Positions 9,132 through 50,368 of a stretch of 61,786 nt of DNA are shown here, in pieces. Source of the stretch: Minisyncoccia bacterium. GTDB taxonomy: Bacteria > Patescibacteriota > Minisyncoccia > UBA6257 > 2-01-FULL-56-20. The translations under genes were made by a program, and so were the position numbers. Where the stretch lies: positions 1 through 61,786 of the forward strand of contig JBEKML010000003.1 in assembly GCA_050008535.1 (NCBI GenBank), given 5' to 3'. The notes beneath the pieces are model-generated. The model was given only the letters and a program-made list of their open reading frames with translations, was not told the DNA's origin and did not search any database. How positions within the stretch are numbered: position 1 is the first letter of the stretch; every line of letters starts with the position of its first letter.

Positions 9132-10565
9132 ATGGCATTTTCCCTCCATCCGGCCGACACGGCATTTGGCATCACGCTTTTATTTCTCGCAGGCATTTTT
9201 ATCGCAGGTTTGGGGTGGCACTTTTTTGTTTTCTTCCTGGCCGTGCTTGCGGGCGGCGTAGCTTCGGTTCTTTTTAAGCGGGCGCTCTGGAAAGAGTGTG
9301 CGCTTTTTTGCTGCGCCATGCTCGCGGGCGCGCTCTACTACCATTTGTATTTCCACATTGAGGACGCGAAAACGAATTTGCCGTTCGGGCAGAAGGGCGT
9401 TTTCTCCGTGACCATTTCGGACGAGCCACAACCGTCGGAAAAATTTTTGATGCTCACGGCCGACGCCGAGCCGCCGTTTGCGGGTACGGTGGAGATCTTC
9501 GCGCCGCCGGAGAGCGATTTTCAATACGGCGAACTGATTCGCGTAGCCGGCACTGTAAACCCGCCGGATATGCCGGGCGGCAACGCGATCATTTTCACGC
9601 CCAAAATAACGGTGCTCGCCGAGCATCGCGGCTTTTGGCTGCGCGAGTGGATGATCAATATCAAACTCGCCATTTTGCAAAAGTTCAGGGAAGCGCTGCC
9701 GGAAGACCAGGCGGCGCTCTTGGGCGGGATCGCTTTCGGTTCAAAAGTGAGCTTCAAGCAGGAATTGAAAGATGCGATGGCGCTCTCGGGAACCACGCAC
9801 CTGGTCGCGGTTTCCGGTTATAACATCACGATCGTCATCGTGGCGGCGAGCGATCTTTTTAGAAGATTCTTCTCGCGCCGCACAACGTTCATTGCCGCCG
9901 TCATTGCACTCCTTCTTTTTATGTTCATGGTCGGCGCGCAGGCATCTGCGGTGCGCGCGGCGATCATGGGATTTCTGGCGCTTGTGGCGCGTGAGATAGG
10001 GGAGGAGTTCTCAATGCGGAACGCGATCGTCTTTACGGCTGCGTTTATGGCGTTGCTTGATCCGGGTATTCTTACCGGAAACCTAAGCTTCATCCTTTCC
10101 TTTTTGAGCTTGGCCGGCATCGTCTATCTTGGCCCGCCGCTCAAAAAACTTTTGCGTTACGGGAATGATGATGGCGGCCTTTTTGATTGGAAAGAGAGCG
10201 CCACGACCACCCTATCGGCGCAGCTCGCCGTGATGCCGGTGCTCATCAATTCCTTCGGCCGGTTTTCGTGCATGGCGATCCTGGCGAACATCTTTATCCT
10301 TGCGACCGTGCCGCTCACGATGTTCTTCGGGCTGCTCCTCGCGCTTTTCGGATTTGCGTCACATTACCTTGCGTTTTTCGCGGGGAAGCTCGTCGGCCTC
10401 ATGCTTGCCTACCAGCTCTTTATCATCCGGTTCTTTGCGGCGCTCGCAATTCCGCTGCCCCTGCCGCTAAATTCCGCCGCCGCGATCGCGTTCTATTATT
10501 TGATCCTTCTCGTTTTTATATTTTCGTATGGTTCGCACGGCCCCCGCGCCGGCATGCTTCCATGA
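9132..10565 (+). CDS. comEC: ComEC/Rec2 DNA-uptake channel (competence domain only)
   Basis: Track ORF trimmed to the ATG at 9132 (477 aa). It is polytopic and carries LLGGIAFGSK....L...M..SGTTHLVAVSGYNITIV. Confidence 0.8.
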   Translation: MAFSLHPADTAFGITLLFLAGIFIAGLGWHFFVFFLAVLAGGVASVLFKRALWKECALFCCAMLAGALYYHLYFHIEDAKTNLPFGQKGVFSVTISDEPQPSEKFLMLTADAEPPFAGTVEIFAPPESDFQYGELIRVAGTVNPPDMPGGNAIIFTPKITVLAEHRGFWLREWMINIKLAILQKFREALPEDQAALLGGIAFGSKVSFKQELKDAMALSGTTHLVAVSGYNITIVIVAASDLFRRFFSRRTTFIAAVIALLLFMFMVGAQASAVRAAIMGFLALVAREIGEEFSMRNAIVFTAAFMALLDPGILTGNLSFILSFLSLAGIVYLGPPLKKLLRYGNDDGGLFDWKESATTTLSAQLAVMPVLINSFGRFSCMAILANIFILATVPLTMFFGLLLALFGFASHYLAFFAGKLVGLMLAYQLFIIRFFAALAIPLPLPLNSAAAIAFYYLILLVFIFSYGSHGPRAGMLP

Positions 10566-12797: not shown

Positions 12798-15257
12798 ATG
12801 AAAAAACAAAAATATATTTTGCAGTACGAGGAGGTGGGCATCAAGGATGTGGGCATTGTGGGCGGGAAGAATGCGTCGCTCGGGGAGATGATCCGGACGC
12901 TCCACGCGAAAGGCGTGCCGGTGCCCTCCGGTTTTGTCGTTACGGCTTCGGCGTATTTCTATTTTTTAGAGAAAACAGGTCTCGACAAGTTCATTAAAAC
13001 CACCTTAAAAGGCCTTAACACGAAGAACTTGAAGGATCTTCAGCGCCGCGGCAAGATAGTCCGCGATGCAATGATGAAAACGGAGTTTCCGAAGGATCTG
13101 GCCGCAGAAATCGTAAAGGGCTACCGCGGACTTGAAAAGCGCTACGGCAAAAATGCGGATGTAGCGGTGCGTTCAAGCGCCACGGCGGAGGACCTTCCCA
13201 CCGCGAGTTTTGCGGGGGAGCAGGAAAGTTACCTCGGCATCCGCGGCGGGGGAGACGTGCTCCGGGCCGTGCGCGCCACCATGGCATCGCTTTTCACCGA
13301 TCGTGCCATTTCCTATCGCGCCGACCGCGGCTTTGATCATTTGAAAATCGCGCTTTCGGCCGGGGTCCAAAAAATGGTTCGCTCCGACCGTGCCTGTTCG
13401 GGTGTGATGTTCACGCTGGACACCGAATCCGGTTTCCGCAATATTGTTTTGATCAACGGCTCGTGGGGCCTCGGCGAGATGATCGTGAAGGGCGAGGTTA
13501 CGCCGGACGAGTTCATTGTTTGGAAAGAAGGGCTTAAGCGGAACGTGCCGCATCCGATCATCGAGAAGAAACTCGGCGTGAAGCTGAAGAAAATGGTCTA
13601 TCATCATGAGCGGCGGCTTGAGCAGGCAAAGATCATCCCTACGACTCCCGATGAGCGCGCATCATTTGTGCTCACGGACCATGAAGTGGCGCGGCTCGCA
13701 AAGTGGGGAACGATCATTGAGGAGCACTACACCAACCACTATAAGAGGTGGATGCCGATGGACATGGAATGGGCGAAGGACGGCGTGACGGGCGAGCTCT
13801 TTATCGTGCAGGCGCGGCCGGAGACGATCCACGCCGGCCGTGATTTTTCCAAAGTAAAAGAATACATCCCACTTGAACGCCGCGAGCCGATCCTTATGGG
13901 TGCATCCGTCGGTTCAAAGATCGGCGTGGGCAAAGCGCGCGTCATTTTAGACGCAAAACACATCGGCGATTTCAAGAAGGGCGAGGTTTTGGTGACCACG
14001 ATGACCGATCCCGATTGGGAGCCGATCATGAAGATCGCCTCGGCGATCGTGACGGACAAGGGCGGCCGCACTTCGCATGCCGCGATCGTTTCGCGCGAGC
14101 TCGGCATTCCCGCGGTCGTAGGAACGGAGAAAGCGACGAAGCTCATCAAAACCGGCGACTCGATCACGGTGGATACAACAGGCAGCGCGGGCAATATCTA
14201 TAGAGGATTCCTGAAGTTCAAAGTGGTGGAGCATGATCTCAAGAAGATCCCGCAGCCCAAGACACACATCATGATCAATGTGGCTATTCCCGACAGCGCG
14301 TTTGAGGTTTCATTCCTGCCGAACAGGGGCGTGGGCCTCGCACGCGAAGAGTTCATCATCGCGTCAAAGATGGGTCTGCATCCGATGGCGCTTTTAAATC
14401 TTGTGAAGCAAACGCCTGCGGTGCGGCATGCAATCGAGCAGAAAATGCGCGGCTGGCGTGACCCGAAGAGATACTATATAGATAATCTTGCGTTCGGCAT
14501 TGCAAAGATCGGCGCGGCGTTCTATCCGCGTCCCGTGATCGTGCGCTTCTCCGATTTCAAGACAAATGAATACCGCACCTTGCTCGGCGGCGAGATGTAC
14601 GAACCGCGCGAGGAAAATCCGATGCTCGGCTGGCGCGGCGCCTCGCGGTACTATGACCCGAAGTTCAAGCCGGCATTCATGATGGAAGCGGCAGCGGTGA
14701 AGATGGTGCGCGAGGAAATGGGGCTTACGAACGTAATTCCGATGGTGCCTTTCTGCCGCACCGCAGAGGAGGGGATGCAGGTGCAAGAAGCAATGGCCGA
14801 AGCGGGGCTTTTCACTAAGTACACGATAAATGCATGGAAACGCATGCGGCATGCTGTGAATGGCAAGAAAGCGACCGTGACGCCCATCTACGTGATGTGC
14901 GAGATCCCGTCCAACGTTTTGGACGCAGATGCCTTCTTGGATATCTTTGACGGTATGTCCATCGGTTCCAACGACCTCACCCAGCTCGCGATGGGGCTTG
15001 ATCGTGATTCCGGCATTGTGACAAAGATCGCGAACGAAAAACATCCTGCCGTGAAGCGCCTAATTGCCGAGATCATCGCAAAGTGCCGCGCCCGCAAGAA
15101 ATACATCGGCATCTGCGGCCAGGGCCCGTCCGACTACCCCGACTTCGCCGAATTCCTCGTGGAGAAGGGCATTGAAAGCATGTCTTTGAATCCCGACACC
15201 GTCGTCCGCACGACCGTTGCGATCGCGAAGAAGGAGAAGCAGCTGAAGCGACGGTAG
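12798..15257 (+). CDS. ppsA: phosphoenolpyruvate synthase
   Basis: 819 aa. GGKNASLGEM, the phospho-His region TDKGGRTSHAAIVSRELGIPAVVG, and a C-terminal PEP-utilising TIM domain with GSNDLTQL. Confidence 0.9.
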   Translation: MKKQKYILQYEEVGIKDVGIVGGKNASLGEMIRTLHAKGVPVPSGFVVTASAYFYFLEKTGLDKFIKTTLKGLNTKNLKDLQRRGKIVRDAMMKTEFPKDLAAEIVKGYRGLEKRYGKNADVAVRSSATAEDLPTASFAGEQESYLGIRGGGDVLRAVRATMASLFTDRAISYRADRGFDHLKIALSAGVQKMVRSDRACSGVMFTLDTESGFRNIVLINGSWGLGEMIVKGEVTPDEFIVWKEGLKRNVPHPIIEKKLGVKLKKMVYHHERRLEQAKIIPTTPDERASFVLTDHEVARLAKWGTIIEEHYTNHYKRWMPMDMEWAKDGVTGELFIVQARPETIHAGRDFSKVKEYIPLERREPILMGASVGSKIGVGKARVILDAKHIGDFKKGEVLVTTMTDPDWEPIMKIASAIVTDKGGRTSHAAIVSRELGIPAVVGTEKATKLIKTGDSITVDTTGSAGNIYRGFLKFKVVEHDLKKIPQPKTHIMINVAIPDSAFEVSFLPNRGVGLAREEFIIASKMGLHPMALLNLVKQTPAVRHAIEQKMRGWRDPKRYYIDNLAFGIAKIGAAFYPRPVIVRFSDFKTNEYRTLLGGEMYEPREENPMLGWRGASRYYDPKFKPAFMMEAAAVKMVREEMGLTNVIPMVPFCRTAEEGMQVQEAMAEAGLFTKYTINAWKRMRHAVNGKKATVTPIYVMCEIPSNVLDADAFLDIFDGMSIGSNDLTQLAMGLDRDSGIVTKIANEKHPAVKRLIAEIIAKCRARKKYIGICGQGPSDYPDFAEFLVEKGIESMSLNPDTVVRTTVAIAKKEKQLKRR

Positions 15258-15268
15258 GTATTAAAAGC

Positions 15269-15715
15269 ATGCCAAAGACCCTTCCGTTAGAAATCTTTGC
15301 CATATATTTCTCTCCTTACACTGCGCATGCGATAGAAATAGACGGAGTGGTATATCCTACCGTTGAGCATGCATATCAGTGTTTGCGTTACACCGACAAA
15401 AAGATCATTGACGAAATAAAAAACGCCCGCAGCCCCGTGAAGGCATGGGAAATTTCAACAAAATATAAACATCTTCAGATACCCACGTTTCGGGAGCACA
15501 AGCGGGAAACCATGAAAATGCTCATGCGGGCCAGGGCCGATCAACACGAAGAAGTGAGAAAAGCCCTGCTGGACTCCGGCGATATCCAGATCGTGAAACA
15601 TATTACGACCTATCCGCCAGGGGATGGATGGTGGGATGATGGCGAGGATGGGAAGGGATTAAATCATATGGGCCGCATCTGGATGGAGATACGGGAGGAA
15701 CTAAGAAATCAATAA
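15269..15715 (+). CDS. NADAR (YbiA-like, DUF1768) domain protein
   Basis: 148 aa. FSPYTAHAIEIDGVVYPTVEHAYQ plus a downstream W-rich C-terminus, as in NADAR proteins. Confidence 0.7.
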   Translation: MPKTLPLEIFAIYFSPYTAHAIEIDGVVYPTVEHAYQCLRYTDKKIIDEIKNARSPVKAWEISTKYKHLQIPTFREHKRETMKMLMRARADQHEEVRKALLDSGDIQIVKHITTYPPGDGWWDDGEDGKGLNHMGRIWMEIREELRNQ

Positions 15716-15718
15716 AAT

Positions 15719-16123
15719 ATGCCCTACCGCGGCGTCATTATCGAAGAAAGTTTAGCCGATAAATCCTTGCTGAAAGATATAAAGATCGTTTCCACAAAGG
15801 TGGAGCCTGTGACCTCGGGCGACAAGCATGCAACGCCGTGGATCGGACAGTGGACGCTTCACGCCGTGGAAGTTCCAGAAGAAAAAGCTGCTACGCTTGC
15901 AGAGAGCATCGGTCATGCACTCGACAAAGACCACGCCCACGCTTGGTACGCGGACTATAAAACCGAAACCGACCATTATATTATCTTTTCTGAAAAGGTA
16001 TTTCATGTAACTGACCGCACAAGCAAGGATCAATACGACGAGGTTGTCCGTTATGGCGTAGGGCTTGGCATCCCGCCCTATCAAGTGGATTTTTCGCCAT
16101 ACGTGCCAGAGTGGAAAAGATAG
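15719..16123 (+). CDS. hypothetical protein, 3 nt after the NADAR gene
   Basis: 134 aa, no recognisable motif, tight coupling to 15269..15715. Confidence 0.5.
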   Translation: MPYRGVIIEESLADKSLLKDIKIVSTKVEPVTSGDKHATPWIGQWTLHAVEVPEEKAATLAESIGHALDKDHAHAWYADYKTETDHYIIFSEKVFHVTDRTSKDQYDEVVRYGVGLGIPPYQVDFSPYVPEWKR

Positions 16124-16303
16124 GATATTTTCATCGCACTCCGCCGAGATTAAAAAATCATTAAACGATTCTTGACTTTGCATTCGGGCACGGTATGATT
16201 TTAGGGAAAACAGCGTCCGTAGAACGATGGACGAAAATCTCCGTTTTGGCGTATAAATGACCGCGCAAGCGGCCATTTATATTTTTAGATAGTTTTAATG
16301 GGA

Positions 16304-16807
16304 TCACCGGATTTCAATAATACGATAGGTTCGGGGACCATCCACGGTTTTTATCGTAACATCGTCTCCCTTGGCGCGGCCGATAAGCGCGGCGCCGAGC
16401 GGGGACTGATACGAAATGCGTTCTCTTGCGGGATCGGATTCGTCCGAGCCAACGATTTGGAACGTTTTTTCCGCTCCGTCGGCCTTGAGTACGACCGTGG
16501 AGCCGATCTGGACCTTGTCCGAAGCGCTTGGACCCGTAGCGATGAGCGCGACGCGTTTTATCTGGTCTTCTATCTCTAATATCTGCCAGTTCGTGCGGCG
16601 CAGGGTTGATTTCGCCAATTTGTATTCGGCGTTGTCCGACCGATCGCCGTATGCGGCTGTCCGCTGGGCTTCGGCAATGCGGTCCGGCAGTGCGCGCTTG
16701 AGGCGTGCGAGTTTTTCCTTCAGGCGCAAGAAGCCCTCTTCGGTAAGATACACGGGTTCGTCGCTTTGTTTCTGGAATTTCTCCGACCTGCGCCTGGGTA
16801 TCTGCAT
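16304..16807 (-). CDS. greA: transcription elongation factor GreA
   Basis: 167 aa. Coiled-coil N-terminus with GDRSDNAEY; C-terminal domain ISYQSPLGAALIGRAKGDDV. Confidence 0.9.
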   Translation of the reverse strand: MQIPRRRSEKFQKQSDEPVYLTEEGFLRLKEKLARLKRALPDRIAEAQRTAAYGDRSDNAEYKLAKSTLRRTNWQILEIEDQIKRVALIATGPSASDKVQIGSTVVLKADGAEKTFQIVGSDESDPARERISYQSPLGAALIGRAKGDDVTIKTVDGPRTYRIIEIR

Positions 16808-26068: not shown

Positions 26069-27178
26069 ATGAAGCTGATAAGCAGCAAACAAGGCCACGG
26101 CCCGGATTACTTCTTCTTCGCCGTGGTCGTGATACTCGTGATCTTCGGGCTCGCGATGCTTGCTTCTGCGTCTTCCAATCTCGGCAAGACCAGTTTCAAT
26201 GACACGTATTATTATCTGAAGCACCAGATCATCTATGGCATCTCATTCGGCATCATAGGATTTGCCGCCGGCTATTTCTTTTATTATGGGAATTGGAAAA
26301 AGATCGCGTTTATCGCGCTGCTTATCAGTTTGGCTGCGTTGATTCTTGTCTTTACGCCGCTCGGGCTCCAGGCCCGGAACACGAGCCGCTGGCTTCGCCT
26401 CGGCCCCTTGAGCTTCCAGCCCGCCGAACTTATGAAACTGACCTTCCTTATTTATCTTGCTGCCTGGCTTTCAAACCCGAAATTCAAACGTGCGACGGAT
26501 TTCCAATCGGGACTTCTGCCCTTCCTTATCATTTCCGGCATCATTGCGGGGTTGCTTATCCTTCAGCCCGCGACGAGCACGGTCGTCATCCTTCTTTGCG
26601 CAGGACTGGCTGTCTATTTCATGAGCGGCGCACCGCTCAAATATCTCGCACTCACGCTTGTTGCCGCGATCGTTGTAATAGGGCTCGTCGTATACATTAC
26701 CCCGTACCGCCGTGCGCGGATATTGAGCTTCCTTGATCAATCTGCGGACACGCAGGGAGCGAACTATCAGCTCAACCAATCGCTCATCGCGATCGGATCG
26801 GGCGGCCTTACGGGCGTGGGATACGGCCAATCGGCAACCAAGACGAACTATCTTCCCACGCCGATAGACGATTCCATCTTTGCGGTCGTGGCGCAGGAAC
26901 TTGGCTTTGTGGGCGCAGGGACGCTCGTTGCGCTTTTTGCGATGTTCGCCACACGCCTTTTTTGGCTTGCGAGAAAAATGAACGACCGCTTCGGGCGCTT
27001 GCTTTTGATCGGTTTCGGGACGGTCATCGCGCTCCAGGCGTTCGTGAACATCGCGGCCACCTCCGGGCTCATTCCGCTCACGGGCGTGCCGCTGCCCTTC
27101 GTGAGCTACGGCGGCACGGCGCTTGCGGTCTTCCTCACAATGAGCGGCATCGCACTCAATGTTTCAAAATATACCTGA
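26069..27178 (+). CDS. ftsW: SEDS-family peptidoglycan polymerase FtsW/RodA
   Basis: 369 aa, about 10 TM. Contains QPAELMK, LPTPIDDSIFAV and SYGGTA. Confidence 0.85.
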   Translation: MKLISSKQGHGPDYFFFAVVVILVIFGLAMLASASSNLGKTSFNDTYYYLKHQIIYGISFGIIGFAAGYFFYYGNWKKIAFIALLISLAALILVFTPLGLQARNTSRWLRLGPLSFQPAELMKLTFLIYLAAWLSNPKFKRATDFQSGLLPFLIISGIIAGLLILQPATSTVVILLCAGLAVYFMSGAPLKYLALTLVAAIVVIGLVVYITPYRRARILSFLDQSADTQGANYQLNQSLIAIGSGGLTGVGYGQSATKTNYLPTPIDDSIFAVVAQELGFVGAGTLVALFAMFATRLFWLARKMNDRFGRLLLIGFGTVIALQAFVNIAATSGLIPLTGVPLPFVSYGGTALAVFLTMSGIALNVSKYT

Positions 27179-27185
27179 TAAGAGC

Positions 27186-28310
27186 ATGCAAGAACGTCCA
27201 TTCACTATTGTCTTTGCGGGTGGGGGGAGCGGGGGACACGTGTACCCCATACTTGCCGTTGCGGGTGTGCTCCGGAAACATTTTGAAGAACTGCGTGTTC
27301 CTTCCCGGATGGTCCGCATGGGGCCGAAGGATGGTTATGAAATACTCTTCCAAAACCGGGACATCGCGCTTTCGCCGATCGTCGCGGGCAAGGTGCGGCG
27401 GTACGCATCGCTTAAAAACTTTGTGGATGTTCCGAAGTTCTTCATCGGATTTTTCCAGGCGCTCGTAAAGCTGTATTTCATCATGCCCGACGTCATTTTC
27501 TCAAAGGGCGGGACGGGCGCGCTGCCCGTGGTCATCGCCGGCTGGCTCTATCGTATCCCCATCGCCATCCACGAATCGGATGCAAAGCCCGGCCTTACGA
27601 ATCTTTTTTCCGCACGATTTGCAAGGAGAGTATTCGTCGGTTTTGAGGAAGCCGCGCATTATTTCAATCCGCAAAAGACGGAAGTTACCGGTACGCCGGT
27701 CCGCGAAGAACTTCTCGCAGGAAGAACCACAAAGGAGCTTGCCAAAGAAACGCTTGGTTTCAGCGCATCAGCCCCGCTCACCCTCGTTCTCGGTGGTTCG
27801 CAGGGGTCGCAACGGATCAACGAATTCATCCTCAAGAATTTAGGCGCGATAGTAAAAGAAACGCAGCTTTTGCACCAGACCGGCATCGCAAACCTTGCCG
27901 AGGTGCAAAAACTTTCCCGCGCCGCGCTCATTGACGAATCGTTCAGGAATCGCTACCAGCCCATCGGTTTTTTTGAAAAGAATCTTGCCTTGGCGCTTAC
28001 CGCCGCCGACCTTGTGGTCATGCGGTCGGGAAGCATGCTTATGGAGATCGCCGCGTTTGGCCTTCCCGCCATCCTTATCCCGCTTTCCGAATCGGCGAAC
28101 GGCCACCAGGTGATCAACGCGTATGAATTCGCAAAGAGCGGCGCGGCGGTCGTGATAGAAGAAGCGAACCTCTTGCCGGGAATATTCATCAGCCAGTTGA
28201 AATCGATCCTCGGCAATCAGGACCTGTGCGCGAAAATGAGCGCGGCCTCAAGCAAATTCTTCATTCCCGACGCAGCGGAAAAGATCGCCGACGAGCTTCT
28301 CGCGCTGTAA
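27186..28310 (+). CDS. murG: UDP-N-acetylglucosamine--N-acetylmuramyl-(pentapeptide) pyrophosphoryl-undecaprenol N-acetylglucosamine transferase
   Basis: Track ORF trimmed to the ATG at 27186. Contains FAGGGSGGHVYP, GGSQGS and MRSGSMLMEIAAFGLPAILIP. Confidence 0.9.
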   Translation: MQERPFTIVFAGGGSGGHVYPILAVAGVLRKHFEELRVPSRMVRMGPKDGYEILFQNRDIALSPIVAGKVRRYASLKNFVDVPKFFIGFFQALVKLYFIMPDVIFSKGGTGALPVVIAGWLYRIPIAIHESDAKPGLTNLFSARFARRVFVGFEEAAHYFNPQKTEVTGTPVREELLAGRTTKELAKETLGFSASAPLTLVLGGSQGSQRINEFILKNLGAIVKETQLLHQTGIANLAEVQKLSRAALIDESFRNRYQPIGFFEKNLALALTAADLVVMRSGSMLMEIAAFGLPAILIPLSESANGHQVINAYEFAKSGAAVVIEEANLLPGIFISQLKSILGNQDLCAKMSAASSKFFIPDAAEKIADELLAL

Positions 28311-28333
28311 CGCATTTCCTCCATGGCAGCTAA

Positions 28334-28477
28334 GGAACAAGCAAAACCTCTCGTAAGGGACGGCGTCGTTTCCTCCGACAGGGAAACGCGCCTCTCCCTC
28401 GCCACGGCAAGCAACCTAAAGGTTGCTTCAAGCCGCCGTGGCTCCGGGACGCCCTTCCGAGAGGTTTTGCTTGTTCC
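28334..28477 (+). repeat. 144-nt structured palindromic element, copy 1 (candidate ncRNA or MITE-like element)
   Basis: A 20-bp terminal stem, GGAACAAGCAAAACCTCTCG / CGAGAGGTTTTGCTTGTTCC, encloses two internal hairpins. It equals the reverse complement of 32087-32230 with 7 mismatches (hand alignment). Confidence 0.8.
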
Positions 28478-28573
28478 TTATGCTAGGGGGACGGAGAGTT
28501 ACCTCTGCGTGCCACTTGATGCGAAATGATCTTCTGCCTAAATTATCCGCCTACCTCTTGGCGAGTTAAGACT

Positions 28574-28603
28574 TTGACTAGGGAATAAAATAATTGTTTA
28601 ATA
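28574..28603 (+). promoter_or_regulatory. candidate promoter of the OLD-xseAB operon
   Basis: TTGACT (28574-28579), about 17-18-nt spacer, TGtTTAATA. AAAAAGGAA precedes the ATG at 28649. Confidence 0.35.
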
Positions 28604-28648
28604 AAGGTGTGATTGTCCTAATGTCGTGAAAAAAGGAATAACTCCTAG

Positions 28649-30364
28649 ATGCGAATTACCGAACTTAGAATTAAAAACTTCAGGTCGATTAAAGATTCTG
28701 GCGAAATAGCCAAGATTACCAAAATCTTTGCACTTATTGGTCGTAACAATACTGGGAAATCTGCGTTCCTTAAAGCGATACAGGTACTCTTCCTTAAGAG
28801 ATCAATTGACGCTGACGACTTCCACAAGAGCAGCGCAGAAGATATTGAAATTACTGGCACCATAGAAACAGGTTTTGGCGAGGACAAAAAGGAAATCAAA
28901 CTTAAAGTTACTTGCTCTAAAGTTGACTTGAAAACAACCTACAATATCGATGGAAAAGAGCAAACAAAAGCAAACTATTCAAATGAACTGCCAGAATTAT
29001 TATCAATAAATGATATTAGAAATCCGGGTGAATCTACGACCGAGGGCCAAAAAGCAACACTACTCAAGCAGATCATGAAACTTAAGATGGCAAAGGCGGG
29101 CGAGAAAGTTCAAGAACTCACAGAGGCCATCACCAAACTCAAGACAGAAGAATCTAAAGACATTTCAGGGATAATCACTCTGAAATTTCAAGAAATCTTG
29201 AACGAAAATAATCTTTCTATCTCGATTTCGCCAACCGTAGAATTAGAAAAGAGCGTTACATACAGAACGACTGTTACGGATGAAAATATTCCGAACGCTA
29301 AAAACGTGGATATTCTAAACTCAGGAACCGGACTTCAGAGTATGTATATTTTGGCATTACTAGAGGTTTGGGCCGAGATGTCTGAGAAATCAGATAACGC
29401 AATACTATTAGTCGAAGAGCCTGAAGTTTATTTACACCCCGATTACCAGAGAAGAATGTTTGCTGCTTTGCGTAGAATAGCCGACAACAATCAAGTCATT
29501 TTTACAACTCATTCTCCAATTATGATCGCTGATATCTGGTTGACGCAGAGTGTCCGTCAGGTCAGACTCAACGCCGAAGGAGAAACACAAATCGAAGTTA
29601 TAAAAATAGAAACCGTCATCGACGAGCTCGGCATAAGATACGAAGACGTTCTAAATCCAAGTCTAGTTATTTTCGTAGAAGGTAAGGATGACGTGCAATT
29701 TTATAAACATTTAGGAATCGAGAATGAAAAGCTCGTCATTATTTCTGCGGATGGATTCAGGGCTATTCATTATTTTGCTTTTATCAAGATTATTTCGAGC
29801 GAGCATGTAAATAACAATTTCTTCCTAATTGTTGATAGCGACGGCAGGTCCAAAGAAGAACGCATAAAACAAATAAAAGAAGATATCATTGGACAATTTA
29901 AAACACCACCGGCCAATTTAGAGGAAAGAATAGCAGACAATATTTTTGTGTTAACAGAATATTCTATAGAGTCATACTTCTTAAATGAAACAATTCTCCA
30001 AAAAGCATTTCCTAAAATAAACGCAGCCGACATAAAACAATTTCTCGAAGAGTATAAGGGAAAATATGAAGAGAAGCTCAAGGAACACAAGGCGGGCAGG
30101 ATCACCTTGGTTGAATTTCTAAAATACCTTAAACCGAAGCTTTGCTTCGAGGCGTTTATTGATCCGAGATTTGAAGCAGCCTACCGAGACTTTTGGGCTA
30201 AGCAGCCAAATTTCATTAAGGTTAGAGATATTATCTCTGAACAATGCGTTCGAATGGAAAAAGAGGGTAGAAGTTGGTTAACCTATATCTTAGCCAATTC
30301 CAAACTAGAGGAAATCAAAGAGCTATCTGACCTCAAGAAAATGATTTTTGGAAAACTGCGCTAA
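28649..30364 (+). CDS. OLD-family nuclease (N-terminal ABC-type ATPase + C-terminal Toprim / DUF4435-like)
   Basis: 571 aa. Walker A GRNNTGKSAF, Walker B ILLVEEPEVYLHP, FTTHSP, then VIFVEGKDDVQFY and FLIVDSDG (Toprim E and DxD). Confidence 0.8.
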   Translation: MRITELRIKNFRSIKDSGEIAKITKIFALIGRNNTGKSAFLKAIQVLFLKRSIDADDFHKSSAEDIEITGTIETGFGEDKKEIKLKVTCSKVDLKTTYNIDGKEQTKANYSNELPELLSINDIRNPGESTTEGQKATLLKQIMKLKMAKAGEKVQELTEAITKLKTEESKDISGIITLKFQEILNENNLSISISPTVELEKSVTYRTTVTDENIPNAKNVDILNSGTGLQSMYILALLEVWAEMSEKSDNAILLVEEPEVYLHPDYQRRMFAALRRIADNNQVIFTTHSPIMIADIWLTQSVRQVRLNAEGETQIEVIKIETVIDELGIRYEDVLNPSLVIFVEGKDDVQFYKHLGIENEKLVIISADGFRAIHYFAFIKIISSEHVNNNFFLIVDSDGRSKEERIKQIKEDIIGQFKTPPANLEERIADNIFVLTEYSIESYFLNETILQKAFPKINAADIKQFLEEYKGKYEEKLKEHKAGRITLVEFLKYLKPKLCFEAFIDPRFEAAYRDFWAKQPNFIKVRDIISEQCVRMEKEGRSWLTYILANSKLEEIKELSDLKKMIFGKLR

Positions 30365-30379
30365 CCCATCCTCAAGTCT

Positions 30380-31696
30380 TTGTTCAATAAAGTAACCAAA
30401 GAATCAACATACGACAAAGGTATGAAAGGAGAAGCGGAATCTAATTCAAGTGCGAAAGATGTCTTAACTGTAAGCTCATATCTTGACGCCCTAAACGTTC
30501 ATATTCAGGGACTTCGGGCAAAAATCGTTGGCGAAATTTCGGATTTACAGACCTACCCTCGCTACCTATTCTTCTCCCTCAGGGACAAGAAGGGTGACAG
30601 TATACTGAAATGCTTCATGTATAACAAAGCTTACCAATTGAGCGGCTTAAAATTAGAGAATGGCCTTGAAGTGATTGCCCATGGTTATCCCTGGATCTAC
30701 AAGTCACGGGGAAACATGACCTTCCAGACTGAGCTTTTGGAATTGGTCGGAGAGGGAGCACTAAAGAAAGCCTATGATGAGCTAAAAGCCAAACTTGAGA
30801 CAGAGGGCCTGTTCGCCCCACAGCGCAAGCGGATTATTCCAGAGTATCCACAGAAAATAGGAATCGTTACTTCTAGAAATGGCGCTGTTATTGACGACTT
30901 TCTTAGTAACATCGGTAATTTTGGCTATCAGACGAAACTCATCGATTCCAAAGTTGAAGGGCAAATTGCGGTAAAGGATTTACTTGCTGCGGTAAAAGCA
31001 TTTCGCAAAGAAAATATCGATGTTCTCGTCATTATGCGCGGCGGTGGATCGCTGGAATCTTTTATGGCTTTCAATAACGAAATCTTGGTTAGGGAAATTG
31101 CCACTTTTCCGGTACCAGTAATCGCAGGCATAGGTCACGACAGGGATGTGTGTCTCGTAGCACTCGCAGCGGATGCTATGGTATCGACGGCAACTGCGGT
31201 AGCTGAGCTTTTGAACCGATCCTGGAACCAAGCTTTATCTAAAGTTCTTCTAGCTGAGAGCAAGATGGTCTCAGGGTATGAAGGTGTTCTTTCTGAGACA
31301 AAAATGGAGATCGGCAATGCTTCGGTGACCATTAAGGAAAAATTCGGGGCAATCTTTGAGAAATTTCGGGACGCAGAGGAATATTTTAAGACCGTTGTAG
31401 GCAAGATCGATAGTAGACTCTCCCAGCTAAGGAATGAGGTGAATAGATTTTCAACCTCCATGATCAAACTTTTCGAATATAAGTTTATCAATCACTTAAA
31501 AAATGGTATTCTTTCTAAAGAAAGGGAGTTGATTCTCAACGACCCTCGCAGACAGCTCAAACTAGGCTATAGTATTGCGATGAGTGGCGGCAGAATAACA
31601 AAGAGCATTAAAGGCTTAAAAGTAGGAGATCCCCTTATGGTAAAGTTGCAAGATGGAGATGTCGGCTCCACAATAGACAGTATAAAAAATGGCTAA
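30380..31696 (+). CDS. xseA: exodeoxyribonuclease VII large subunit
   Basis: 438 aa (TTG at 30380, alternative ATG at 30422). OB-fold region with YLFFSLRDK; IGIVTSRNGAVIDD, IMRGGGSLESF, AGIGHDRD. Confidence 0.85.
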   Translation: MFNKVTKESTYDKGMKGEAESNSSAKDVLTVSSYLDALNVHIQGLRAKIVGEISDLQTYPRYLFFSLRDKKGDSILKCFMYNKAYQLSGLKLENGLEVIAHGYPWIYKSRGNMTFQTELLELVGEGALKKAYDELKAKLETEGLFAPQRKRIIPEYPQKIGIVTSRNGAVIDDFLSNIGNFGYQTKLIDSKVEGQIAVKDLLAAVKAFRKENIDVLVIMRGGGSLESFMAFNNEILVREIATFPVPVIAGIGHDRDVCLVALAADAMVSTATAVAELLNRSWNQALSKVLLAESKMVSGYEGVLSETKMEIGNASVTIKEKFGAIFEKFRDAEEYFKTVVGKIDSRLSQLRNEVNRFSTSMIKLFEYKFINHLKNGILSKERELILNDPRRQLKLGYSIAMSGGRITKSIKGLKVGDPLMVKLQDGDVGSTIDSIKNG

Positions 31697-31967
31697 ACCC
31701 ACACCATCAAAAGTAAACCTAAACGAGTCGCTCAAACAGCTCGCTAAAATCGTAGTGTGGTTTGAAGAGCAGGAGGAGGTCGACGTAGAGAAAGGTCTAG
31801 AATACGTGAAAGAGGGTGTTGAACTTATTAAAACCTGTAAAGCCCGACTTTCGCAGGTTGAAAACGAATTCAAGGAAATAAAAAGAGATTTAGAAGACGA
31901 TGGTGAAGGGGGTGAAGGACCCCAAGAGACGATACCAGAAGGGAACGGAGAAGAACTACCTTTTTAA
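31689..31967 (+). CDS. xseB: exodeoxyribonuclease VII small subunit
   Basis: 92 aa with an 8-nt overlap onto xseA. Helical, with LNESLKQLAKIV..FE......VEKGLEYVKEG.EL...C; acidic tail. Confidence 0.75.
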   Translation: MAKPTPSKVNLNESLKQLAKIVVWFEEQEEVDVEKGLEYVKEGVELIKTCKARLSQVENEFKEIKRDLEDDGEGGEGPQETIPEGNGEELPF

Positions 31968-32059
31968 TTTAAAATGTAAAAGAGGTTTCGGGAGGCATTG
32001 ATCGGCAAGATAGAGTAACGAAAGGATATGACATTTTAATGTTGGAAAAGGGCTGAAAC

Positions 32060-32076
32060 AGTTCGAACATCGTCCA
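32060..32076 (+). repeat. boundary motif copy C (AGTTCGAACATCGTCCA)
   Basis: Identical 17-mer to 2828-2844. It lies at the GC shift between the island and element copy 2. Confidence 0.8.
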
Positions 32077-32086
32077 AGTCTGCCAG

Positions 32087-32230
32087 GGAGCAAGCATAAC
32101 CTCTCGTAAGGGCGTCCCGGAGCCACGGCGGCTTGAAGCAACCTTTAGGTTGCTTGCCGTGGCGAGGGAGAGGCGCGTTTCCCTGTTGGAGGAAACGACG
32201 CCGTCCCTTACAAGGGGTTTTGCTTGCTCC
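32087..32230 (-). repeat. 144-nt structured palindromic element, copy 2 (inverted)
   Basis: The reverse complement matches 28334-28477 at 137/144. The central ~105 nt differ at one position, which is a loop position. Confidence 0.8.
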
Positions 32231-32280
32231 GTGGCCGCTGGTTAGAATTCTAACGAAAAATGAGCTAAAATAGGGGATAT

Positions 32281-33756
32281 ATGGCGAAACCTATGGAAAA
32301 TCCGCCAAAGGTTCGTGTCCGCATGGCTCCAAGCCCGACGGGGCCGCTCCATGTCGGCGGTGCCCGGACGGCGCTCTTTAACTGGCTCTTTGCCCGCCAG
32401 AAGGGCGGTGCGTTCATTCTACGCATAGAAGACACGGACAAGGAGCGGTCGGAGAAGAAATACGAAGAGGAACTGCTTGCCGGGCTTGCGTGGCTGGGCT
32501 TGGACTGGGACGAGGGACCGCTCGGCAACGGCGGGCGCCTTATGGAGGACGAAGAGGGGCCGTATGGCCCGTATCGCCAAAGCCGGCGGACGGAAATTTA
32601 TAAAAAATACCTTCAGGAATTGATTACTAAAGGCGAGGCGTATTACTGTTATTGCACCAAAGAAGAGCTTGAGGCGCAGCGCGATGCGCTTCTTGCGCAG
32701 GGGCTTCCGCCGAAATACAACGGGCGCTGCCGGAATCTGAAAACGCCGGAGGCAGGGAGAAGGCCGGAGGTCATCCGCTTCAAAGTTCCCGAAACAAAGG
32801 TGGAATTTGAAGACATGGTCCGCGGAAAGGTTTCGTTTGACACCTCGCTTTTCGGCGACATTATTATTGCGAAAGACCTTGAAAATCCGCTCTACAATTT
32901 CGCCGTCGTCGTGGACGACGAGCTGATGAAGATCAGCCATGTGATCCGCGGCGAAGAGCATCTTTCCAATACGCCGAAACAGATCCTTATGCAGCGCGCG
33001 CTTGGATTCCAGGAGCCCGTCTATGCGCACATCCCGCTCATTTTGAATCCCGACCGCAGCAAGATGTCAAAGCGTTTTTCCGACACGGCACTTCTGCAAT
33101 TCAAAGAAAAAGGATACCTGCCGGAGGCGCTTATGAATTTTTTGGCGTTTCTCGGCTGGCACCCAAAGGACGACAGCGAAGTGCTTTCCAAAAAAGAACT
33201 GATCAAGGCGTTTGATCTCACGCGCGTGCAGCAAGCGGGCGCGATCTTCAATCAGGAAAAACTGGATTGGCTGAACCGCGAACACTTGAAGAATACGGAC
33301 GATAAAAAGATCGTGGAACTGCTTGGTCCTTTTCTTCAAAATAAACGTCTTGCCGCCCCCGAGGAATTCCTGAAAAAGGTCATAGCGGTGGAACGCGGCC
33401 GCGCGAGCACGCTGAATGACTTTATAGAGCTTGGGCATTTCTTTTTTGCATTGCCGGAATACGAGCCCTCGCTGCTTGTTTGGAAGGAAAGCACCGCGCC
33501 TGAGGCCCGGGCGGCGCTTGAGGCGGCGCTCGCGGACCTTTCGAAAATTGATCCGATGAATTTTGAGCGGGGGGTCTTATCCGACGCCGTGGCGTCCATT
33601 GTGGGGGACAAAAAGAGGGGAGTGGTGCTCTGGCCGTTGCGTGTGGCCCTTTCTGGGCTCGGGGCCTCTCCGGACCCAGTCGAGATCATGGAAGTGCTCG
33701 GCAAAGAAGAGTCGTTAAAGCGAATAGGCGGCGCGATCGCGAAGCTGAAGAAATAA
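32281..33756 (+). CDS. gltX: glutamate--tRNA ligase
   Basis: 491 aa. Contains PSPTGPLHVGGARTALFN, LRIEDTD and KMSKR. Confidence 0.95.
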   Translation: MAKPMENPPKVRVRMAPSPTGPLHVGGARTALFNWLFARQKGGAFILRIEDTDKERSEKKYEEELLAGLAWLGLDWDEGPLGNGGRLMEDEEGPYGPYRQSRRTEIYKKYLQELITKGEAYYCYCTKEELEAQRDALLAQGLPPKYNGRCRNLKTPEAGRRPEVIRFKVPETKVEFEDMVRGKVSFDTSLFGDIIIAKDLENPLYNFAVVVDDELMKISHVIRGEEHLSNTPKQILMQRALGFQEPVYAHIPLILNPDRSKMSKRFSDTALLQFKEKGYLPEALMNFLAFLGWHPKDDSEVLSKKELIKAFDLTRVQQAGAIFNQEKLDWLNREHLKNTDDKKIVELLGPFLQNKRLAAPEEFLKKVIAVERGRASTLNDFIELGHFFFALPEYEPSLLVWKESTAPEARAALEAALADLSKIDPMNFERGVLSDAVASIVGDKKRGVVLWPLRVALSGLGASPDPVEIMEVLGKEESLKRIGGAIAKLKK

Positions 33757-47153: not shown

Positions 47154-49034
47154 CTAAACCGTGCGTTTTTTTAGGACTACAACGAGCGAGATCGCAATTA
47201 CCATGAGAATGCCGACCAACGTGACGATGTTCCATGGAACGCTATTCCCTCCGGGAGGAAGTCCGGTATTGGGAAGTCCGGGAGCAGACACAAGGACGGT
47301 AGCGAAGGCATAGCCCAGGGCGGTAAAGCCGTTTGCCTTGCCTTCGGCCGCAGCGACGTTCCTGGTTGAAGCCGTAACATTTGTTTTGCAGGTATAAGTC
47401 CATGTTTCGCCGGGATCAAGCAGGTTGTTGCTGTTGGCATCGCCGGAGATGCGAGAAACCGGACCGCATTTGTCGTCAGTGACGGCTACATTATTCATTG
47501 CAACCACACCTGGATTCGTTACGGTGTACGTATACGTGACATTACCGCCTCCAAACGGAAATGGAGTCAAGCGGCTCGGCACTTTTACGATGTTGATGAG
47601 CGGGGGCGGTAATAACGCGCCGACAACCACGGTAGCGATCGCGGTAGCGACCGTAGCCTGATGGAAACCGTCGTCGCTGTAACCAATTGCAGTTGCGGTG
47701 TTCGTAGTGGTCTTTGAGAGCGTTGTGGTGCAGCTGTATTTCCAGTTTTCGTGCGGGTCAAGTTTGCCGTTGCCATTCAGATCGCCCGAAACATAAGTTA
47801 CCGGGCTGCACTGGTCGTCGGTTACCGCAACATTGATCAAGGCCTGCTGCCCTCCGACATTCCAGGCCGTGTAATTGTATGTAACCGAGCCGGACCCTCC
47901 GGGCAAAGCGAGCGGCGCAGGAACCTTGAGTATTCCGATCAACGGCACGATTCTACCACTCTCACTGACGTTGCCGCCACCTGACGCCGCAGGCGAAACA
48001 ACGGCAACGGCAGTGTTAACGATCGTGCAGGTCGCATCGTCACCCGTCGCGAGCGTCACATTGCCACTTGAATCACATCCCGTTCCGGTGAACGTTCGCA
48101 CATAAGAGGAATTTGCGTCTTCGCTTACCACATAGTTGCCTGCGGAGAGCGCATACGTGGTTCCGGGCGCCGCAGCACCGGCCGTCGGAGCCCCAACATC
48201 CACGCCGCCCTGCTTTACGTGCACGGTAAAGCCGGAAGCAGGCGTCGTGCCGCCAACAACAAGTTTAATGACATGAAGGGATGTCGGTGTGGTAATGGTG
48301 TCCTGGTCGGTCGTGACCGTGTGGCCAAACGCCAGCAATCTTCCTCGTATGTTCACGAATTGTCCTACCGTGATGCCGGTAGAGCCAAGAGCATCGGCAA
48401 TGATGTTCCCCACAAAAGTAGGCGTGGGCGACGTTGCAGAGTTCGCTCCAAGCGTCGCGGTGCCGCCCGGAATCCAATATACATTCTGAGCGAGGGCGCC
48501 GTTCGTCAAAACAACTTTGGAATTTGCTCCCGTCGTAAGCGCCCCGCCCGACTTGAAGATGTAGATGCCTTGGCCATTAAGGGTCACGGTAGTGCTTAGG
48601 GTTATATCCATCGTGCCACTGCTTTTGTAACAACCCGGAGTGTAGGTTCCGGATAGAACAACATTGGTGCCAAGAGACGTGCAGGACGCGTCGGCGGCTT
48701 GAGCGTTCAGGTCCACCAGGGCGGCAGTTTGAGACCCTCCGTTCGTACAAGGCACAACAGCCAGACTTAACGGCGTGGTAGTTACGCCGTTAATTGATAT
48801 AGGCGCCGTGGCGGGTGGCGTGGTATAACAAACGCCTCCAGTGATAGCGGTTTCCAGCCCGGTGCCAGAGGTGTAGGAGTTGGTCCAGGTACTGGCAACA
48901 ATGGCGTAGGGTGCTTCCGCCCCGAGAGATGGCGCCACTCCTACCGCCGCAAGTGCGGCAACGGGCCCAACGAAACCGAGTGCAAAAGTAACGGCTAATA
49001 TAGTTACTACTGAATTCTTACCGATCTTTTTCAT
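47154..49034 (-). CDS. LPNTG-anchored surface protein (DUF3494-like N-domain plus repeated Cys-containing domains)
   Basis: 626 aa. Signal peptide; a duplicated module (VAVTDDQCSPV..SGD.NGNGKLD..E.W.Y.C / VAVTDDKCGPV..SGD.N.N.LLDPGETWTYTC); C-terminal LPNTG, hydrophobic helix and KKR tail. Confidence 0.8.
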   Translation of the reverse strand: MKKIGKNSVVTILAVTFALGFVGPVAALAAVGVAPSLGAEAPYAIVASTWTNSYTSGTGLETAITGGVCYTTPPATAPISINGVTTTPLSLAVVPCTNGGSQTAALVDLNAQAADASCTSLGTNVVLSGTYTPGCYKSSGTMDITLSTTVTLNGQGIYIFKSGGALTTGANSKVVLTNGALAQNVYWIPGGTATLGANSATSPTPTFVGNIIADALGSTGITVGQFVNIRGRLLAFGHTVTTDQDTITTPTSLHVIKLVVGGTTPASGFTVHVKQGGVDVGAPTAGAAAPGTTYALSAGNYVVSEDANSSYVRTFTGTGCDSSGNVTLATGDDATCTIVNTAVAVVSPAASGGGNVSESGRIVPLIGILKVPAPLALPGGSGSVTYNYTAWNVGGQQALINVAVTDDQCSPVTYVSGDLNGNGKLDPHENWKYSCTTTLSKTTTNTATAIGYSDDGFHQATVATAIATVVVGALLPPPLINIVKVPSRLTPFPFGGGNVTYTYTVTNPGVVAMNNVAVTDDKCGPVSRISGDANSNNLLDPGETWTYTCKTNVTASTRNVAAAEGKANGFTALGYAFATVLVSAPGLPNTGLPPGGNSVPWNIVTLVGILMVIAISLVVVLKKRTV

Positions 49035-49057
49035 GTTTTTGTTTATTGGTTGGTTAA

Positions 49058-50368
49058 TTAATAATGCGTGCTTAGATAAGCCCGAGTTATCGCCCCGAAA
49101 TTCCCGAGCGCCGGGCTAATCCCTACGCTCGCCTGAAACTCAGCCAATGCTGCGCGAGTGAGAGATCCGAAGTTAGCGGTCGCGCCAACGCTGGCTAAAG
49201 CTTGTGCCGCCGGACCTTTATTTTGAGCGACCAAAAATTGTTGAAGGATTTTTACGTCATTACCACGACTGCCTTGTCCAAGACTCGTCGCGATCGCCCG
49301 AACTTGCTGGCCAGAAACGGAAGCCGGAGCGGAAGCGGAAGAACCTTGCTGCCCTGCCTGCGCCTGGAGTGATTGTAGGGTTGCTAACAATCCATTGAGC
49401 TGGGCCTGTAAGGCGGCTTTATCTGTCGTTGTCGGCGAGATAGGAACCACTGGTGGATTGCCGCAACCCCATGCAGGACACATAACCTGAGTCGATGTCG
49501 GTGCCGAACAAATATATCTTCCTGGTATGCTTTGGGTGATCCCGATCGGCACCGTACCGACGGGGCATGGCTCCGGGGTCGTCGTGGTTGACGTCACGGT
49601 GAGAGCTACAGACGTTGGCATGGTCACAGCGTTTGATTGCAACGTAACTGCGGCCTGTGCGAGCGCCCTACCGCTCAGGGTTGCGCCAGTATTCAACACA
49701 ATCGTTGTTTGATCCAATATGTTTCCATTAAACGCAGCTGTCGTGCCGATGGTCGTCTGCCCTGCGACAGCCCAGAAAACATTACTCGCCTGTGCGCCGC
49801 CGCTCAGAATAATATGCGTGGCGGAACTCATGACGAGATTCCCCGCTATCTGGAATATCCAGACATCGTTCGGACCGCCCGAGAGAGTGACGTCTGTTGG
49901 TATGGTAACGTTCGTGCTCCATTTGTAGAGTCCTGGTACGAGCGTGTCTCCTCCAATATTCCCCGCACCCATTTCAGTCTGGGTCGGATTCGTCCTCCCC
50001 GCGGCATCGGTATAGGCGGTTTGCATATCGCTTATCGCCGTAGTCATTGTGGTAGGAGTGGGAGCCGCATAATCGGCTGCGTATACTTTTCCGGTAACGA
50101 GCGCCGATGTCGAAAATGCATTCGAGATGTCCAACATTAGTCCGAACCCGGTTATATAGCTCGCGGCCGCGGGGCTGACTCCGATATCCCCGACAATCGA
50201 AGTGGATCCCGTAGTTGAAATCCCTGTTTTGGCAAGAATCACAAAATTACCCGCCGATCCAAGATTTACTGCTGCTGGACCTGCCGCAAATGCGACTTGT
50301 CCAACAAGACTGAGCACGAAAGAAACGACCAATACGATCACTATCGAATTTTTATTGATTTTTTTCAT
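49058..50368 (-). CDS. DUF3494 (ice-binding-like fold) protein with C-terminal peptidoglycan-binding domain
   Basis: 436 aa. Signal peptide, LGSAGNFVILAKTGISTTGSTSIVGDIGVSPAAASYITGF, and a C-terminal GNDVKILQQFL....FGSLTRAALAEFQ (PG_binding_1-like). Confidence 0.75.
   Translation of the reverse strand: MKKINKNSIVIVLVVSFVLSLVGQVAFAAGPAAVNLGSAGNFVILAKTGISTTGSTSIVGDIGVSPAAASYITGFGLMLDISNAFSTSALVTGKVYAADYAAPTPTTMTTAISDMQTAYTDAAGRTNPTQTEMGAGNIGGDTLVPGLYKWSTNVTIPTDVTLSGGPNDVWIFQIAGNLVMSSATHIILSGGAQASNVFWAVAGQTTIGTTAAFNGNILDQTTIVLNTGATLSGRALAQAAVTLQSNAVTMPTSVALTVTSTTTTPEPCPVGTVPIGITQSIPGRYICSAPTSTQVMCPAWGCGNPPVVPISPTTTDKAALQAQLNGLLATLQSLQAQAGQQGSSASAPASVSGQQVRAIATSLGQGSRGNDVKILQQFLVAQNKGPAAQALASVGATANFGSLTRAALAEFQASVGISPALGNFGAITRAYLSTHY

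Follow-up and report, generated by a model that had tools for sequence, protein, structure and literature searches.

MITEs are non-autonomous derivatives of DDE transposons: small, non-coding, multi-copy elements of variable location with conserved TIRs shared with a parent IS (PMC6382973). In MITE-flanked composite transposons and mobile insertion cassettes, non-coding intergenic palindromes of ~150 bp bracket passenger genes that are lacking in relatives, and no transposase lies inside. The element described here is similar in these respects: it is 150 nt long, non-coding, and present in differing contexts with two copies in the window (the whole 61.8-kb stretch of DNA analysed), two copies on contig L026, and one copy on contig L025. 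However, the terminal stems are entirely different from copy to copy and the conserved part is the interior, no consistent target-site duplication is present, and no parent IS is known. The arms of the closing stem (P1) are unrelated among the window copies, L025, L026-T1, and L026-T4, and no IS was found among the window ORFs scanned. Moreover, the interior hairpins of the element covary, unlike the interiors of neutral MITEs.

REP/REPIN repeats with their RAYT gene and ERIC/IRU repeats are also intergenic hairpins that occur in either orientation, are co-transcribed, and keep their stems by compensatory change. Inverted pairs of REPINs surround the RAYT gene. In contrast to these rod-like repeats, the element is branched (a three-way junction), has no GTAG-type motif and no RAYT/Y1 gene nearby, and is conserved in sequence across genomes with a closing stem that is free to vary. 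Features expected of IS200/IS605 or REP/RAYT transposition are likewise missing, as the left flanks share no common motif, the pairs are inverted, and no Y1/HUH domain was found among the window ORFs scanned. The Correia/NEMIS repeats of Neisseria are similar in length (100-155 bp), long terminal stem, position between genes, and potential as RNase III substrates, and copy 1 of the element has a TA...TA flank. However, Correia TIRs are conserved and their TA duplication is regular, neither of which holds for the element.

Integron attC sites are set by folded single-strand structure rather than sequence, border gene cassettes, and in some cases have branched tips. Their conservation is the reverse of that found here, because attC conserves the stem base (R/L boxes, GTTRRRY) and varies at the tip; attC sites are also in direct orientation beside intI, whereas the element pairs are inverted. 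The variable stem bases of the element lack RYYYAAC...GTTRRRY, and no integrase was found among the window ORFs scanned. In architecture only, the element is also like parvovirus-type inverted terminal repeats, T/Y-shaped three-way-junction palindromes of ~145 nt, inverted at the ends of a 4-6 kb segment, in which both strands fold equivalently. Unlike these repeats, it lies in a bacterial chromosome, has a stem of variable sequence, is without a HUH Rep gene (window ORFs scanned), and shows no flip/flop variants in metagenome contigs. Finally, a P1 stem enclosing two hairpins corresponds to the a1/a2 arrangement of retron ncRNA (msr-msd), a likeness in shape only.

Fold, covariation, and distribution of the element

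An earlier note had described a 144-nt sequence at 28334-28477 that folds by hand into a three-way junction, and both the sequence and the fold hold. RNAfold predicts this structure for the plus strand at -93.3 kcal/mol (z = -11.9), a stability reached by none of 200 shuffled sequences. The minus strand gives the mirror structure (z = -10.0), and copy 2 also folds as RNA into a three-way junction (z = -9.4). With DNA parameters, a 160-nt version takes the same shape as in RNA (-62.3 kcal/mol, z = -11.8), and P1 reaches ~26 bp. The closing stem was drawn too short at 20 bp; it extends over about 23-26 bp, and the element occupies 28331-28480. The second helix was proposed as AAGGG(A)CG/CGCCCTT; covariation instead backs AAGGG/CCCTT together with an extra helix, P3, which pairs TCCC (28395-98) with GGGA (28446-49). 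Conservation was said to be highest in unpaired and junction regions, which is correct for the CAAGCC internal loop and the 3' junction, both among the most constant parts, but not for the two hairpin loops and junction bases 28395 and 28397, which vary; the basal stems are likewise among the most constant parts. The features are summarized in Table 1.

Table 1. Features of the murG-gltX locus, of copy 1 of the element, and of the copies on other contigs (window positions unless a contig is named).
Feature	Position	Strand	Evidence or description
murG, left host flank	27159..28310	+	Pfam Glyco_transf_28, Glyco_tran_28_C; synteny with L012-L014
Copy 1, structured element, 150 nt	28331..28480	+	RNAfold, DNA fold; covariance model R1 match 171 bits; covariation
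P1 (copy 1)	28331-28343/28468-28480 plus 28345-28353/28458-28466		
P2 (copy 1)	28355-28359/28452-28456		
Hairpin A (copy 1)	28362-28392		
P3 (copy 1)	28395-28398/28446-28449		
Hairpin B (copy 1)	28401-28442		CAAGCC internal loop 28429-28434
Cargo between copies, 3.6 kb	28481..32083	+	40.4% GC vs flanks 55.6% and 52.6%; missing from relatives' murG-gltX junction
OLD-family ATPase-Toprim nuclease, 571 aa, first cargo gene	28649..30364	+	Pfam AAA_15 9.7e-33; PADLOC Old 1.4e-40, also AriA, GajA
xseA, exonuclease VII large subunit, 438 aa (424 aa in some contigs)	30380..31696	+	Pfam Exonuc_VII_L 1.1e-54 and OB fold
xseB, exonuclease VII small subunit, 92 aa	31689..31967	+	Pfam Exonuc_VII_S 8.4e-08
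Copy 2, right-hand inverted end of insert	32084..32233	-	Reverse complement of copy 1; R1 match 168 bits, minus strand
gltX, right host flank	32281..33756	+	Pfam tRNA-synt_1c
L025 copy	L025:1223-1372		
L026 copy	L026:3477-3626	-	
L026 copy	L026:10018-10167	+	

Copy 2 is an inverted and not a direct copy. Between copy 1 and the reverse complement of copy 2, seven of the 144 positions differ (4, 16, 19, 44, 124, 134, and 141), and on recomputation all seven agree with those listed before. As had been observed, the change of A4 to G together with T141 to C is a compensatory pair change, the only central change (position 44) falls in the hairpin A loop, and the other four lie in or beside P1, with three of them weakening it. 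The C to A change at position 124 in copy 2 closes a T/C mismatch adjoining P2. No further copies of the element or its stem were detected in the window, including by a scan with R1.

Statistical support from two copies had been considered weak, a caveat that is lifted by the five copies now available. RNAalifold on the five real copies yields 61 pairs, 24 of which have changed on both sides. In the trimmed alignment (A4), 92.4% of cells are paired compared to 82.5% in shuffles, and the 24 double-sided changes compare to 9.5±2.3 in shuffles (0 of 500); as a control, sliding the partners by 1-3 columns lowers the number to 2-6. Each helix has at least one compensatory pair, including P3, in which UCCC/GGGA alternates with UCUC/GAGA, and one L026 copy has a joint change of three basal hairpin B pairs from GCCACGGC/GCCGTGGC to GCCGCAAC/GTTGCGGC. 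Given covariation in all helices, the structure is real and maintained by selection. Additional homologues with broken stems had been suggested as grounds for refuting the fold, and the homologues obtained here keep the stems. These conclusions are based on the five real sequences (alignments A3 and A4), not on sequences rebuilt from depth tables; an earlier, partly reconstructed alignment of hairpin B with one incomplete row pointed in the same direction and is superseded.

The element was matched by no Rfam family, a check that the earlier note had advised. At the gathering threshold, the whole window contains only 16S rRNA and a tRNA, and under permissive conditions (E ≤ 10) the best overlap around the locus is MIR6457, with 19 bits against a gathering score of 140. 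P1 is not followed by a T-run in any of the five copies, as would be expected for an intrinsic terminator, and the terminator scan returned a weak internal match in copy 2 only.

In Minisyncoccia/Paceibacterota (CPR) from peat and fresh water, structured repeats of ~150 bp form a multi-copy intergenic family to which the element belongs. The three further real copies are located on other Minisyncoccia (CPR) contigs. One of these contigs, L026, measures 137 kb and comes from peat, and NCBI names its proteins Minisyncoccia bacterium; the GltX of the window groups with Paceibacterota/Minisyncoccia. These copies were recovered by searching a spurious 68-aa ORF across the element against protein representatives. 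The matches P0244 and P0245 are spurious ORFs over other element copies, and the repeat-protein matches P0242 and P0243 were discarded as low-complexity noise. Because four of the six frames of the element are open, gene callers place spurious ORFs of 68-108 aa over it (window 28323-28529; L007:5930-6136; L025:1215-1541; L026:10001-10240). Such “hypothetical proteins” are annotation artefacts in public contigs, yet they provide handles for finding copies.

Peat, wetland, freshwater, permafrost, and groundwater metagenomes yielded Logan contigs with the core. Aligned to the element, these contigs show 80-100% conservation of the core (about 28355-28456), and their P1 is replaced by unrelated yet complementary arms (e.g., CAGGTTGTGTTTATATTTTG/CAAAATACAAACACAACCTG and TTTCGCCAGATTTACCTTTATGGAG/CTCCATAAAGGTGAATCTAGCGAAA). 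The P1 arms of different copies, though of unrelated sequence, form 23-27 bp with 0-2 mismatches. Whole distal stems are also exchanged for unrelated hairpins in metagenome variants: in hairpin B, AGCAACC and GGTTGCT around a TAAA loop become TGCCGAT and ATCGGCA around TGGT with the CAAGCC internal loop kept, and in hairpin A, GTTTCC and GGAAAC become GCCCGC and GCGGGC around ACCG. Core depth in peat runs is ~6x the flank depth, and the core is therefore present in many other contexts. Peat runs contain many variant contigs. Several variants are equal in depth across two samples, and two of them were found on one contig.

Exact-pattern scans with a 27-mer and a 20-mer of the core gave nothing or chance G+C-rich matches (L001-L005) in GTDB genomes, JGI metagenome contigs, and IMG/VR, although these negatives carry little weight because the collections also miss contigs known to bear the element. 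The element had no blastn match in plasmid and phage collections, a protein search with four concatenated core reading frames returned nothing, and relatives found through GltX gave empty sites and no additional copies. A literature search found no description of such elements. The element represents a previously undescribed structured repeat family in CPR that is tied to the boundaries of accessory blocks.

The insertion between murG and gltX

Copy 1 begins 20 nt after the murG stop codon, and a promoter-proximal block of gltX, AAAATGAG(G/C)TAAAATAGGGGATA, begins ~15-20 nt past copy 2 (alignment A2). This block is kept in the window, L012, L013, L014, L023, and L024. In the closest recoverable relatives, murG adjoins gltX with spacers of 41 nt (L012, GltX 80% identical to that of the window), 30 nt (L024, 75%), and 28 nt (L014, 73%). 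The extra DNA measures 3.9 kb as a whole block, and at each of its boundaries a copy lies no more than ~20 nt away. The empty sites in relatives, the copies at the boundaries, and the GC contrast (Table 1) therefore identify the arrangement element-OLD-xseA-xseB-inverted element as an insertion. The 3.9-kb block was inserted after divergence from the nearest sampled relatives. The earlier interpretation had overlooked this main context, namely that the two copies are the inverted ends of the insertion.

Read depth over the insert equals that of the flanks, and the insert is fixed in the sampled population. Joints that would indicate an empty site, an inversion, or a flip were absent from four peat and sediment metagenome runs and from the assembled contigs listed. 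An identical OLD protein is found on twelve contigs; the gene order is the same in all six that were listed, and the murG-to-gltX arrangement is the same in all four that reach both flanks. Both insert junctions are also present in a related freshwater-sediment strain that is ~8% diverged in murG.

Within the clade, the content of the spacer between murG and gltX (28311-32250 in the window) varies, making this spacer a local hot spot. It is empty at L012:7529-7569, at L014:9973-10000, and in L024, and it contains a 595-aa ORF unmatched by Pfam in L013 (7984-9960) and a low-GC NYN-domain gene on the minus strand in L023 (540-2140), where a 19-bp hairpin also occurs. L013 has an unrelated 178-nt rod-like hairpin (9771-9948; -101 kcal/mol, z -8.6) with a perfect 15-bp basal stem. 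This hairpin is located just upstream of gltX, the position of copy 2, beside a different inserted gene. In addition, a low-depth contig (run X4, record 27) matches the spacer between xseB and copy 2 (window 31993-32076) with 9 differences and turns into other sequence (CGCAGGCCAGCAACGGGCCTGG...) where the copy 2 stem should begin; it possibly represents a related cassette whose stem is of another variant.

The OLD gene lies on the strand of copy 1, 168 nt downstream of it, and copy 2 follows the xseB stop codon by 116 nt. The OLD nuclease gene, xseA, and xseB lie in immediate succession within a single low-GC block (28649-31967), whereas OLD homologues elsewhere are unlinked to ExoVII. The association may constitute a new defence or repair module, or it may be incidental. 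Those homologues (L015-L022, 45-71% identity) reside in restriction-modification, defence, and recombinase islands that contain neither xseAB nor the element, and a role of the element as an OLD-associated RNA or accessory was ruled out on the basis of these contexts. Downstream of another organism's OLD operon, L018 has an array of hairpin units (GAGATTGCTTCG...CTCGCAACGACAGC) in both orientations (15200-16800), with a weak R1 match of 32 bits at 15542-15690; this repeat family is distinct from the element. A stem-plus-spacer candidate downstream of the same operon was rejected (z -2.3).

The L026 copies form a second inverted pair, 6.4 kb apart, with P1 stems unrelated to each other. The pair surrounds eight same-strand accessory genes, including a MacB/FtsX-type ABC exporter, an ECF sigma factor, a PEBP-family protein, and small ORFs. 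Relative to the cargo, the orientation of the pairs is opposite, as the copies point toward the cargo in the window and away from it in L026. Either the orientation is irrelevant or the core can flip between its own inverted arms. No transposase, integrase, reverse transcriptase, or Y1/HUH domain was found in the cargo or the window ORFs scanned (Pfam on about half).

Candidate functions of the element

Each of the five copies occupies a short spacer between same-strand genes, with two in sense and three in antisense orientation, and no promoter, terminator, end motif, or consistent target-site duplication is common to their flanks. Stem mismatches are transitions, with G·U-type and A·C-type about equally common, hence wobble pairs reveal no strand bias, and the same fold is obtained from both strands and from RNA or DNA parameters. 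Together, the mixed orientation, the flanks without shared motifs, the G·U/A·C balance, and the equal folds argue against a strand-specific RNA and in favour of a structure that is read in DNA, whether as a hairpin in a single strand or as a cruciform, albeit with small numbers. The earlier note had left the choice between a functional RNA and a protein-recognised DNA hairpin. Its structural claim is fully supported; the functional RNA is not favoured in view of the two sense and three antisense copies, the lack of a conserved promoter, the G·U balance, and the inverted window copies, and the candidate DNA hairpin fits better on the comparisons made here.

The element is most likely a DNA signal linked to gene-cassette mobility and not an ordinary RNA gene. 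More specifically, it may be a non-autonomous, structure-defined DNA repeat recognised by a putative recombinase or transposase, a reading that we adopt tentatively and with somewhat less than even confidence. The conserved core (P2, hairpin A, and P3 leading into hairpin B with its CAAGCC loop) would be the module for recognition, binding, or cleavage, and the recogniser would be a putative trans-encoded, structure-specific recombinase or transposase. P1 would need only to pair, supplying the folding energy for a hairpin or cruciform in single-stranded or supercoiled DNA, and pairs of copies could carry the DNA between them in the manner of a MITE-flanked composite transposon or mobile insertion cassette. 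We infer that the action is at the DNA rather than the RNA level, that the block may be mobile as a unit, and that a cognate enzyme may exist.

Several observations weigh against this mobility reading. Among them are the lack of a transposase, integrase, or reverse transcriptase in the cargo and the window ORFs scanned, the opposite orientation of the two pairs, and the absence of presence/absence, excision, or inversion polymorphism from the four metagenomes and the assembled contigs listed. The end sequences of P1 are the least conserved part of the element, the reverse of classical TIR-based MITEs. The TA...TA flank is restricted to copy 1, and copy 2 and the L025 and L026 copies have no TA duplication. 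The outer flanks of the window pair contain a possible 8-nt direct repeat with a 7/8 match (TGGCAGCT at 28323-30 and TGGCCGCT at 32233-40), which is confounded with stem extension, and nothing comparable is present at L025 or L026. Since context is available for three loci and direct pairs would delete the block between them, the inverted pairing could partly reflect survivorship. Strong covariation and a conserved junction are also a classic signature of functional RNA.

A broader proposal, which we consider rather unlikely as it stands, is that the element exemplifies a class of structure-defined cassette-boundary elements in CPR, in which a conserved junction hairpin on a free-sequence stem would be the target of a putative enzyme that captures, inserts, or exchanges accessory and defence blocks. 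In its logic such an element would resemble attC sites and hairpin terminal repeats, with the conservation inverted, the core being fixed and the stem free.

The element may alternatively be a structured non-coding RNA, which seems somewhat unlikely. Here, the ~100-nt core would be functional, P1 would be an RNase III-type processing stem that frees the core from read-through transcripts, and the copies would hitch-hike in spacers. Covariation in all helices, conserved junction and internal-loop bases, and a variable closing stem are the usual pattern of functional RNA, P1 stems of 20-27 bp suit RNase III, and copies in short same-strand spacers would be co-transcribed. However, three of the five copies are antisense to the surrounding transcription, the flanks have no conserved promoter or terminator, there is neither an asymmetry between G·U and A·C nor an Rfam relative, and the inverted pairs at insertion boundaries are left unexplained.

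We regard as improbable a REP/ERIC-like hairpin at transcript ends, an orientation-independent insulator, terminator, or mRNA stabiliser that would separate the acquired operon from host transcription, with pairs arising from build-up at operon borders. The positions of copies 1 and 2 shortly past the stop codons of murG and xseB agree with such a role, as do the retention by gltX of its own conserved promoter block, the equal folding of both strands, and the other hairpins in the hot spot of relatives (the 178-nt rod of L013 and the 19-bp hairpin of L023). On the other hand, the stems have no U-tract after them, the element is missing from the same spacer in relatives, and a generic hairpin fails to explain an asymmetric core that is 85-100% conserved across genomes and includes the CAAGCC loop.

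It is very doubtful that the element is an RNA or DNA component of the OLD-ExoVII cassette, as in a retron-like or other nucleic-acid-guided defence module with P1 as the a1/a2 duplex: OLD-type ATPase-Toprim effectors occur in some retrons, ExoVII processes msDNA, two hairpins are enclosed by complementary ends as in retron ncRNAs, and copy 1 lies upstream of OLD on the same strand, but neither the cargo and the window ORFs scanned nor the neighbours of the L025 and L026 copies include a reverse transcriptase, homologues of OLD with 45-71% identity have neither the element nor xseAB, the L025 and L026 copies flank unrelated genes (ABC exporter, ECF sigma factor, DeoR regulator), and the second window copy is inverted. 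The three loci recovered point away from an enrichment of the element beside OLD, ExoVII, or RT genes.

CPR/Patescibacteria have tiny genomes with few recognised mobile elements, and their acquisition of accessory and defence genes is poorly understood. Two independent inverted pairs surround accessory blocks, and R1 together with A4 provides a searchable handle on cassette turnover in CPR. Any cognate enzyme would count as a structure-specific DNA recombinase or transposase with a new specificity; should the element instead prove to be an RNA, it would define a new widespread class of CPR ncRNA.

Elsewhere in the window, the 3' part of a 16S rRNA gene is located at the start (1-756), followed by a tRNA (2233-2316) and protein-coding ORFs. 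The 23S and 5S rRNA genes are absent throughout the 61.8 kb, and the rRNA genes appear to be unlinked. The end of a 1495-aa ORF (56526-61013, minus strand) contains two 82-nt direct repeats (56530-56701) that are 74% identical with a spacing of 90 nt. Near this ORF are genes for two Ice_binding-like surface proteins (47154-50368) and a cohesin/Big_13 protein (52260-54356).
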